Translations under genes and position numbers: made by a program | Notes under the pieces: generated by a model | The model's input: only the letters and a program-made list of their open reading frames with translations | Told to the model about the DNA's origin: nothing | The model's database searches: none | Assembly (NCBI RefSeq): GCF_002854065.1 | Contig: NZ_CP024147.1 | Reading direction: 5' to 3' (one strand) | Source: Escherichia coli | GTDB taxonomy: Bacteria; Pseudomonadota; Gammaproteobacteria; Enterobacterales; Enterobacteriaceae | DNA: 64,000 nucleotides | Part shown: positions 53,065 to 55,335 of the stretch, piece by piece | Numbering within the stretch: the first letter of the stretch is position 1 | Layout of the letters: each line of letters starts with the position of its first letter

Positions 53065-53079
53065 TAATGGGTGCGGCTT

Positions 53080-53120
53080 GATGCCCTCACCCCGGCCCTC
53101 TCCCTCAGGGAGAGGGTGAA
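53080..53120. repeat. GC-rich inverted repeat (ccctctccc-tca-gggagaggg) between deoB and deoD
   Basis: Perfect 9-bp stem at about 53096..53116 within gccctcaccccggccctctccctcagggagagggtgaa. Confidence 0.4.
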
Positions 53121-53143
53121 AACATGTTGATAAGGATAAAACA

Positions 53144-53863
53144 ATGGCTACCCCACACATTAATGCAGAAATGGGCGATTTCGCTGACGTAGTTTTGATG
53201 CCAGGCGACCCGCTGCGTGCGAAGTATATTGCTGAAACTTTCCTTGAAGATGCCCGTGAAGTGAACAACGTTCGCGGTATGCTGGGCTTCACCGGTACTT
53301 ACAAAGGCCGCAAAATTTCCGTAATGGGTCACGGTATGGGTATCCCGTCCTGCTCCATCTACACCAAAGAACTGATCACCGATTTCGGCGTGAAGAAAAT
53401 TATCCGCGTGGGTTCCTGTGGCGCAGTTCTGCCGCACGTAAAACTGCGCGACGTCGTTATCGGTATGGGTGCCTGCACCGATTCCAAAGTTAACCGCATC
53501 CGTTTTAAAGATCATGACTTTGCCGCTATCGCTGACTTTGACATGGTGCGTAACGCGGTAGACGCGGCTAAAGCACTGGGCATTGATGCTCGCGTTGGTA
53601 ACCTGTTCTCCGCTGACCTGTTCTACTCTCCGGACGGCGAAATGTTCGACGTGATGGAAAAATACGGCATCCTCGGCGTGGAAATGGAAGCGGCTGGTAT
53701 CTACGGCGTCGCTGCAGAATTTGGCGCGAAAGCCCTGACCATCTGTACCGTGTCTGACCACATCCGCACTCACGAGCAGACCACTGCCGCTGAGCGTCAG
53801 ACCACCTTCAACGACATGATCAAAATCGCACTGGAATCCGTTCTGCTGGGCGATAAAGAGTAA
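53144..53863 (+). CDS. deoD: Purine nucleoside phosphorylase
   Basis: Track ORF, 239 aa, [33 protein letters not shown]... Confidence 0.95.
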
Positions 53864-53893
53864 TTGTGTTTCGCTGAAAGGCGATTGTCGTGT

Positions 53894-53926
53894 GAAGCCG
53901 GAGTGGGAGACTGCTCCGGCTTTTTA
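53894..53926 (+). terminator. Intrinsic terminator of the deo operon
   Basis: agccggag-tgggagact-gctccggct hairpin followed by ttttt. Confidence 0.7.
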
Positions 53927-53928
53927 GT

Positions 53929-54026
53929 ATCTATTCATCAATAGCAACTGATTTATAGATTTACTATTATTTTTCATATGGATAGAAAATAAAATCTATT
54001 CAAGTATCTATTCACGAATCTATTCA
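53929..54026. repeat. Four copies of ATCTATTCA, three phased at exactly 12 bp, in an AT-rich block
   Basis: Copies at about 53929, 53994, 54006 and 54018 (atctattcaagt / atctattcacga / atctattcattt). Confidence 0.6.
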
Positions 54027-54287
54027 TTTATGTTCAGCCGTCATCCAGGAAGGGCATATCAGCAACTCTGGTGGACAACCATAAATTTCTGCCATTTTGC
54101 TTTTGATGTTTGAGCTAAACCGTTCCGTCTTTTCGATCTATTTTAGAGAATTAATCGAGATACCTAACATTTTACTTACTTCAGCAAGCGATAATTTATG
54201 CCTGATACGCACGGCGGCTAGCCAGGAAATACGCTGGCTTAACATTAAATTGATAATCTCCCGCTCCTGGTTTTCCAGATCGATCAT
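54024..54287 (-). pseudogene. Relic XRE-family HTH reading frame interrupted by an in-frame amber codon, downstream of lplA
   Basis: ATG at 54287 with AAGGAAGGG Shine-Dalgarno: MIDLENQEREIINLMLSQRISWLAAVRIRHKLSLAEVSKMLGISINSLK-TAG(54138..54140)-IEKTERFSSNIKSKMAEIYGCPPELLICPSWMTAEHK*; reading through the TAG gives a complete XRE-type HTH plus helix, with no kinase or other domain following. Confidence 0.5.
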
Positions 54288-54318
54288 ATTCCCTTCCTTT
54301 GGTATTTTAATCAGCGAG

Positions 54319-55335
54319 TTACCTTACCGCCCCCGCTATCCACGTCGACAACTCCCGTAGCTCTTTTTCCTGGTCCGGGAAGTCAACCAACAGCGCTTCG
54401 CACTCTTGTTGCAGCATATCCGCGCGGTACAGGCAGCCTTGCAGTCGCCCGGCGAGGGCTTCCAGCGGCGCGGGGTTGAGGCTGTCGGTAAACACCTGGG
54501 CGCGGGTGATATGGCCTTTTTCAACGTCGAAATGCAGTTCCACGCCGCCCCAGGTAAAGCGTTCATCCAGCAGATGCGAGAATGCCGGAGCCTGACCGAA
54601 GTTCCATTCCCAGCTACTCTGGCGGGCAAAGGTTTCGGCGAAGTTCGGCAAGTCTGGCGTTTTGTCCGGGGAGATGATTTCCGCTTCTACACGCTCGCCA
54701 TAATGAGCGAAAAAGGCCTCGGTTATGGCCTCGCAAACCTGCTCATGGGTGATCCCCGGCAACAGCTCGGTGAGGTTGGTCACGCGGGAACGTACCGACG
54801 TAATGCCTTTCGCCGCCAGTTTCTTTTTATCCGGATTGAGATAGTTTGCCAGGCGACTAAGGTCGGCATTGAGCAGCAAGGTGCCGTGGTGGAAGCCACG
54901 ATCTTTGGTTTCGCGATAGGCCGATCCTGAGACTTTGCGGTCGCCTTCGGCGGTTTTCACCACCAGATCGTTACGCCCGGACGCTTCGGCGCTGACGCCA
55001 AGCGCGTTCAGCGCATTGAGCACAATCGACGTGGAGATGGTTTTATCGTACTCCGGCTTGCCAGCCATAAAGGTAAAGCAGGTATTGCCGAGATCGTGGA
55101 ACACCGCGCCGCCACCGCTACTGCGCCGTGCCAGGCGGACGTTATCTTCTTCCATCCGCCGGGTATTACACTCTTTCCACGGGTTCTGCGCGCGACCAAT
55201 CACTACCGTGTCGGCATTGCGCCAGAGAAACAGAACGCGCTGCGTGGCGGGCATCTGGCGAAAAATACACTCCTCCACCGCCAGGTTAAACCACGGGTCG
55301 TAAGAGTCAGAGATGAGCAGGCGTAATGTGGACAT
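54319..55335 (-). CDS. lplA: Lipoate-protein ligase A
   Basis: Track ORF, 338 aa, [28 protein letters not shown]... Confidence 0.95.

Follow-up and report, generated by a model that had tools for sequence, protein, structure and literature searches.

The deoD–lplA interval

The stretch of DNA analyzed here (the window; 64,000 nucleotides, or 64 kb, of an Escherichia coli genome) carries, in order, the + strand genes deoB and deoD, the − strand genes lplA and ytjB, and serB. The interval under study is bordered on the left by deoD (53144..53863, +), coding for purine-nucleoside phosphorylase, and on the right by lplA (54319..55335, −), coding for lipoate-protein ligase A; both genes are supported by their open reading frames and by the RefSeq annotation of identical DNA. 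With deoD ending at 53863 and the lplA stop codon lying at 54319-54321 on the minus strand, the gap is 455 bp long, and its GC content of 35-40% compares with 52-62% in its neighbors.

Reading from deoD, the interval begins with a terminator-like hairpin (53895..53927, +), an inverted repeat of AAGCCGGAG and CTCCGGCTT separated by 10 nt and followed by TTTTT; a simple terminator scan missed it because the loop is 10 nt long. Four copies of a 9-mer, ATCTATTCA, lie in the DNA that follows. The distal copy is at 53929..53937 (+), and 65 bp further on, measured from start to start, is the first of three tandem copies with a 12-bp period (53994..54026, +; starts at 53994, 54006, and 54018). All exact occurrences of the 9-mer in the 64-kb window are these four, where 0.46 are expected, and none of 100 shuffles reaches four.

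The right part of the interval is occupied by a pseudogene of an 87-codon XRE-family helix-turn-helix (HTH) gene (54024..54287, −), identified from its translation, a Pfam HTH_3 match, the PGAP annotation, and its intact orthologues. Its ATG at 54287-54285 is 31 nt past the lplA stop and on the same strand, and the spacer between the two genes (54288..54318, −) carries a purine-rich Shine-Dalgarno (SD) sequence (AAGGAAGGGAAT-ATG). A terminator scan of this spacer found none, and a promoter scan returned one weak promoter-like site at 54310-54283 (9/12 matches), which is not above shuffles; the small gene is probably co-transcribed with lplA. An Rfam search of 53700-54500 gave only a sub-threshold chance match to a snoRNA. 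The frame reads MIDLENQEREIINLMLSQRISWLAAVRIRHKLSLAEVSKMLGISINSLK (MIDLENQ...LGISINSLK) up to an amber TAG at codon 50 (54138..54140, −), continues as IEKTERFSSNIKSKMAEIYGCPPELLICPSWMTAEHK, and ends with TGA at 54026-54024, such that its final codons and stop overlap the third tandem 9-mer. At the amber position, intact alleles have CAG or CAA (Gln) or an Arg codon.

A preliminary description made from the sequence alone had reported the 455-bp gap, the start codon 31 nt past the lplA stop on the same strand, and the TAG, and every coordinate it gave is correct. It had also proposed that the frame encodes an XRE-type HTH which is interrupted by the TAG and continues in frame, and a profile search of the read-through product bears this out: with Gln put at the stop position, Pfam HTH_3 (PF01381) matches residues 23-76 over model positions 1-55 of 55, with an i-Evalue of 3e-6. 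PF01381 is also precomputed for the intact orthologues. The frame is interrupted at codon 50 in the window, and the window copy is a pseudogene of the XRE / Cro-C1 family, not a working member. PGAP reports the same on identical DNA, where it annotates a 'helix-turn-helix domain-containing protein' as a pseudogene with an internal stop; several complete genomes match the 455 bp at 100% identity.

The intact form, as modeled by AlphaFold2 (pLDDT 88.6), has a compact five-helix fold containing the helix 2-turn-helix 3 arrangement, with the XRE helices at residues 22-29, 34-41, 45-54, 59-69, and 73-76, together with an N-terminal helix (4-18) and a short C-terminal helix. The top Foldseek matches are CylR2, C.BclI, SinR-N, and P22 c2 (TM 0.55-0.77), with E-values of only 1e-2, a level that is normal for domains this small. 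The E. coli protein shares the HTH_3 match, the helical fold, and a similar size with XRE / Cro-C1 regulators such as CylR2, 434 Cro, the N-terminal domain of P22 c2, and the controller C proteins of restriction-modification systems; it differs from them in the extra N-terminal helix and in a C-terminal tail (80-86), and in being cut at codon 50 here. Codon 50 falls inside predicted helix 45-54, which is the recognition helix. Because half of this helix and everything after it is missing from the 49-residue amber product, the product should have lost its function, and DNA binding should be abolished.

Two alleles of the interval

In K-12, the deoD–lplA gap is filled by the 1,332-bp hipH/yjjJ, and the preliminary description was right that this gene, which it gave as about 1.3 kb, is absent here. 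HipH belongs to the HipA family of Ser/Thr kinase toxins and has an HTH at its N-terminus (PMC8262856, PMC9948734, PMC11452175). In K-12 and the other hipH carriers, the gene lies on the + strand, with its ATG 166-167 nt past the deoD stop and its own stop abutting that of lplA. The left 169 bp of the interval in the window (53864-54032) are the hipH upstream region, with the terminator, the ATCTATTCA array, and the ATG all retained, and alignments show that the deoD hairpin is common to the hipH-type and XRE-type alleles. A relic of the hipH start codon is at 54030..54032 (+), and hipH-type homology ends right after it, with K-12 reading ...ATCTATTCATTAATGAGCGAG and the window ...ATCTATTCATTTATGTTCAGC; in the window this ATG opens only an unrelated 27-codon ORF. 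Beyond it, the hipH coding sequence has been cleanly swapped for an unrelated AT-rich segment of 286 bp, with the small gene on the opposite strand. No HipA_C ORF or similarity is found within 53864-54318, in keeping with the earlier statement that no kinase domain follows the HTH. The further suggestion of a decayed or deleted toxin locus divides into two parts: a decayed kinase gene is ruled out by the clean replacement of the coding sequence, and the suggestion stands loosely in that the hipH repeat array is retained and the nearest outside relatives of the small protein (see below) are antitoxin-like.

Alignment to other E. coli strains shows how widespread each state is. Among 5,426 complete E. 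coli genomes, 4,057 have the gap in its 455-bp form, which leaves K-12 in the minority state; about 1,312 have hipH/yjjJ instead, and there the match to the interval is confined to its first 169 bp, at 82-84% identity. That some three quarters of the complete E. coli genomes lack hipH is of use to work on HipH and persistence, as is the observation that genomes without it do not have a simple deletion; a small opposite-strand HTH gene substitutes for hipH. Intact 87-codon genes are annotated between lplA and deoD in O157:H7, O55:H7, O145:H28, ATCC 25922, KSC1031, and others, and intact 87-aa orthologues are also found in Shigella flexneri, Escherichia marmotae, and the cryptic Escherichia clades, all between lplA and deoD. 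A scan of genome contigs with peptide patterns, which are too specific for other genera, yielded two further loci, both in Escherichia.

The distribution of the amber codon was surveyed in the same 5,426 genomes using a 45-mer centered on the stop, for which the megablast seed requires a matching central base. The TAG form is present in 1,690 genomes (about 31%) and the CAG (Gln) form in 2,036. The TAG count agrees with the number of genomes in the ≥99% identity band of the interval search (1,696), which points to the amber allele marking one large haplotype clade, O104:H4 included. The stop sits at a codon that is sense (Gln or Arg) in the orthologues and recurs across independent genomes, and the amber allele is an ordinary, lineage-fixed nonsense variant that RefSeq already annotates. 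In itself it is of low importance, as a RefSeq-flagged nonsense allele of a poorly characterized small HTH gene. The XRE gene is also disrupted in other ways, by a frameshift in S1-CHI-01-A and by a TGA at codon 81 in GABEEC10.

Which of the two alleles came first was considered from the gene content of other genera. HipH homologues have identities of ~70% in a further enterobacterial group, 62% in Citrobacter, 61% in Kosakonia, 58% in Salmonella, and 49-50% in Erwinia, declining roughly with taxonomy, and the order deoD-hipH-lplA/ytjB is found in Salmonella, Citrobacter, the ~70% group, and Erwinia. Because it is syntenic in these four other genera, hipH appears to be the ancestral occupant of the slot, with the XRE-type allele replacing its coding sequence. 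We had entertained the reverse order, with the XRE-type allele as ancestral, on the basis of an orthologue from another genus, and dropped it after finding this synteny.

That orthologue (P0079) is an 87-aa protein which aligns with the E. coli protein without gaps at 44% identity, and its gene is flanked by lplA and deoD on a single short contig. The host is an enterobacterium whose lplA has 78-80% identity and is about equally far from E. coli, Salmonella, and Citrobacter. A search with the orthologue found it to be a singleton among 5.8 billion clusters, and its comparison with the E. coli gene gives a pN of 0.37, below the pS of 0.71. The presence of a 44% orthologue at the same locus in another genus suggests that the XRE-type allele either is very old or has moved between genera. 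We looked for the trace of an old linked polymorphism in the flanking genes; divergence of deoD and lplA between the allele classes is not above that within classes, and recombination would therefore have erased any linked signal.

Relatives of the small protein and selection on its gene

A HMMER search of 1.84 billion representative proteins gave only 34 matches at E<=1e-3, mostly Escherichia fragments, and the family is therefore nearly genus-restricted. The nearest relatives outside it are proteins of 104-129 aa, the C-terminal halves of which align with residues 9-76 of the Escherichia protein; the alignment shows AAWR and IYxC motifs common to both, beyond what is generic for an HTH. Membership of the same HTH subfamily is further indicated by a match to phrog_7241 (6.2e-10; profile positions 54-121 of 122), and tblastn gives 31-37% identity to phage and plasmid members. 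With 30-37% identity over about 70 residues (within residues 3-77) for the outside matches as a whole, the link to the ParE-associated antitoxins is a weak one.

The best non-Escherichia matches are ParE/RelE-linked regulators, namely Pasteurella phage Pmp14 gp33, PPyecE_EH1910 gp290, and WP_225988006 of Leclercia pZ96-1_2. These homologues are 118-124 aa long, with an N-terminal extension of ~50 residues, and are encoded directly 3′ of ParE/RelE genes in all three contexts (a Pasteurella phage, an enterobacterial phage, and a Leclercia plasmid). The upstream toxins are 86-93 aa and are annotated as RelE/ParE or plasmid-stabilization proteins; Pfam ParE_toxin matches one of them at 7e-10, and NCBIfam gave the phage toxins no name. 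A related protein (P0083) has no toxin gene adjacent.

The E. coli protein differs from these regulators in both respects. The first 53 columns of the alignment, corresponding to the N-terminal extension, are empty in all Escherichia sequences, and no ParE/RelE-like ORF is adjacent to the small gene, with lplA ending 31 nt upstream and the 9-mer array and deoD downstream. The small gene does not qualify as part of a toxin-antitoxin module, and its predicted product is similar to the half of such an antitoxin that binds DNA; an origin as a domesticated, toxin-less antitoxin remnant is plausible.

More specific identities were sought and not adopted. PDB sequence searches with the small protein and with its 104-122-aa relatives returned generic XRE proteins only (CylR2, a 434-type repressor, an immunity repressor), and we make no claim of a HigA2-type antitoxin. 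NCBIfam matches were sub-threshold only (for example sigma-70 region 4 and NadS). HipB of the hipBA system, at 88 aa, is likewise a small HTH protein of the XRE type and is reported to neutralize HipH toxicity (PMC9948734). BLASTP found no alignment between HipB and the small protein at E<=100; the neighbors of the small gene are lplA and deoD, with no adjacent kinase gene of the hipA family, and the window has no TATCC-N8-GGATA operators. We reject a relationship with HipB. The preliminary description had offered a 'small Cro/HipB-like repressor' as one of two options, and the small Cro-like part of this was well judged, the intact orthologues being 87 aa long with Gln or Arg at the TAG.

Selection on the small gene was evaluated from pairwise Nei-Gojobori pN/pS, which is 0.19 among 11 alleles and 0.30 among 17 alleles including the cryptic clades, compared to 0.03-0.04 for lplA and 0.01 for deoD. 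The intact XRE gene is under moderate purifying selection, relaxed relative to its neighbor genes. Since pN/pS is 0.2-0.3 and relaxed in this comparison, the intact gene may bring only a slight benefit.

The repeat array and the interpretation of the locus

The ATCTATTCA array precedes hipH in at least five genera, represented by E. coli K-12, Salmonella, Citrobacter, the ~70% enterobacterium, and Erwinia, and its layout in front of hipH is consistent: a distal copy, 64-66 bp from start to start, and then two or three copies spaced every 12 bp, the array ending 3-4 nt short of the ATG. The sequence separating the copies is not conserved across the five genera. Because the copies are conserved and the intervening DNA is not, we lean toward regarding the array as a putative, so far undescribed autoregulatory operator of HipH, and the N-terminal HTH of HipH would be the obvious candidate to bind it. 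This HTH 'may function to bind DNA', and the control of HipH is unknown (PMC8262856); regulation by c-di-GMP targets the hipH promoter region (PMC11452175). A literature text search for the 9-mer returned unrelated primer matches only. The array is a concrete sequence to test for HipH control, and as a by-product of this analysis it is more interesting than the amber allele.

Where the hipH coding sequence has been replaced, the array is less regular. Of 17 XRE-type alleles, 5 are short of one 12-bp unit, and most have a degenerate first tandem unit; a test for constraint on the 9-mers in these alleles gave no significant signal, with 7/36 sites variable, against 17/56 and 17/62 in neighboring DNA. 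At the other-genus orthologue locus, the array is lost. The pattern among the XRE-type alleles fits an orphaned, slowly decaying site, which may retain some use.

We interpret the interval as the XRE-type allele of a two-allele locus, with the small gene dead in this strain, and assign this a probability of roughly 0.85. The deoD–lplA gap of ancestral Enterobacterales would have held hipH behind a ATCTATTCA array of one distal copy and a tandem run of two or three. Most E. coli and the cryptic clades would then have exchanged the hipH coding sequence, from just past the ATG to the stop, for an AT-rich segment of ~286 bp. This segment carries an 87-codon XRE gene that starts 31 nt behind lplA and runs on the strand opposite to hipH. 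When intact, the protein is predicted to be a small DNA-binding protein of the Cro/C1 type, under moderate purifying selection, and is most likely a domesticated, toxin-less remnant of a ParE/RelE-type antitoxin module. In the lineage of the window, a single CAG-to-TAG change at codon 50 would truncate the protein midway through its recognition helix, and the hipH upstream region, with its terminator, 9-mer array, and ATG, would be left as an orphan.

The alternative that survives best ties the XRE protein to the retained array: in an old two-allele system, an antitoxin-derived HTH gene without a toxin would have been swapped in for hipH and would act through the kept operator, for example by binding ATCTATTCA as a stand-in for the HTH of HipH, by silencing the relic hipH promoter, or by providing immunity through repression of a re-acquired, incoming hipH. 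Several observations speak for it. Array, 65-bp spacing, and hipH ATG all persist in the XRE-type alleles, even with 56 nt of intervening sequence that diverge strongly from the hipH type; the distal 9-mer of the XRE type, with an inverted copy, forms a 12-nt imperfect palindrome (53929-53940 / 53949-53960); the stop codon of the small gene lies within the third repeat; the relic hipH promoter, with TAAAAT at about 53989-53994, points antisense into the small gene; and HipB, which is also an XRE protein, is reported to neutralize HipH toxicity (PMC9948734). Against this, the 9-mers are not clearly better kept than their neighbors in the counts of variable sites given above, a unit is lost in some alleles, the array is absent at the orthologue locus in the other genus, and the small protein has no sequence similarity to HipH or to HipB. 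We consider such a function unlikely. The same low likelihood attaches to its corollary that the amber allele would be a regulatory loss and not neutral; if the small protein did act on the array, the amber allele would be a natural double null, having neither HipH nor the small repressor and with the operator intact.

Doubtful to a greater degree is the proposal that the 87-codon frame is no real gene anywhere and is intergenic DNA that happens to be open in some lineages. The near confinement of the family to Escherichia, with its 34 matches in 1.84 billion representatives, and the many independent disruptions (the amber, the frameshift, and the TGA at codon 81) would be expected of such DNA. 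However, pN/pS values of 0.2-0.3 are clearly below 1, the product matches Pfam HTH_3 and has a confidently predicted XRE fold, the start codon is preceded by a strong SD sequence, and the ungapped 87-aa orthologue at the same locus in another genus has a pN below its pS. All of these argue for a gene that is real where intact.

The other option of the preliminary description, a yjjJ/hipH-like gene reduced to its N-terminal HTH by decay and by loss of the kinase domain, is refuted by strand and by sequence. HipH does have an N-terminal HTH (PMC8262856) and the relic sits in the place of hipH, but comparison with K-12 puts yjjJ on the opposite strand (hipH on +, the relic on −), and a BLASTP comparison of HipH with the intact small protein yields no match better than one of 6 residues (E 0.21); an inversion scenario likewise leaves no similarity. 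The GC content also differs, at 41% in the XRE gene and 54% in hipH, and the + strand behind the hipH ATG relic contains only the unrelated short ORF. Finally, although TAG and CAG are one base apart, a sequencing or assembly error in a strain with an intact gene is negligible as an explanation, given the exact TAG 45-mer in 1,690 independent complete genomes and the internal stop called by PGAP in several assemblies. One further TAG, in GTEN_23, is on a different haplotype, where it arose by recurrent mutation or came in with a short recombined patch.

A 9-mer array upstream of hipH

Comparison across loci showed that an array of the 9-mer ATCTATTCA is kept upstream of hipH (yjjJ), the HipA-family kinase toxin gene that lies between deoD and lplA in K-12, from Erwinia to E. 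coli, with no such conservation of the intervening DNA. The array consists of one distal copy and two to three tandem copies with a 12-bp period, and the distal-to-tandem spacing is 64-66 bp; it spans 53929-54026 in the window and 2066-2166 in L030, and lies upstream of position 3501 in L024, L025, L027, and L029 (all comparison loci from other genomes or contigs). It is a likely HipH operator, and the papers that could be searched do not describe it.

In XRE-type alleles, such as that of the window, the 9-mer recurs twice in inverted, degenerate form (TTTATAGAT and TGGATAGAA; window 53949-53960 and 53980-53987) between the distal and tandem copies; together with the distal 9-mer, one of these inverted copies makes up an imperfect palindrome of 12 nt. 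The hipH-type allele has neither inverted copy.

Variation at hipH and in the neighboring spacers

In an enterobacterium with a 70%-identical HipH, successive REP-like palindromes (GCCGGATAAGGCG...), together with a 163-aa open reading frame that by eye looks like a REP-associated tyrosine transposase, enlarge the deoD-hipH spacer to 1,145 bp (L027, 2356-3500; L028); beside hipH, the array keeps its distal copy and two exact tandem copies intact, and the third is degenerate. Strain TB354 (NZ_AP038814.1; L032, 4206-4664), one of ~50 complete E. coli genomes outside both main allele classes, has an IS200C transposase insertion between deoD and hipH. In strain SaT040 (L003, 3167-4497), hipH is annotated as a frameshifted pseudogene, and thus hipH-type alleles are not all functional.

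The deoB-deoD spacer is 79 nt long in the window (53065-53143) and L001, versus 56 nt in K-12 and L002. Within this spacer, the window holds a GC-rich palindromic element (CCCTCTCCCTCAGGGAGAGGG), which resembles a boxC-type repeat.

The small HTH gene

A 13-nt inverted repeat (12/13 complementary; 54047-54059 and 54286-54298) would pair the Shine-Dalgarno/start region of the small XRE-family HTH gene with codons 76-80 in its own mRNA, and the ribosome-binding site could therefore be sequestered. Other alleles alter one arm with no compensation in the partner, and the repeat is therefore probably due to chance.

The CAG-to-TAG change of the window is also present in strain GTEN_23 (NZ_CP113486.1; L008, 2905-3168), where the haplotype is clearly a different one: only the TAG base distinguishes L008 from L013. 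The change would have arisen there by recurrent mutation or through a very short patch of recombination.

In another enterobacterial genus, a 1,371-bp Logan contig (DRR526040; L021) encodes an 87-aa orthologue of this HTH protein (44% identity, ungapped) between lplA and deoD. Among 5.8 billion clusters, the orthologue forms a singleton, and on the contig REP-like sequences stand in place of the 9-mer array.
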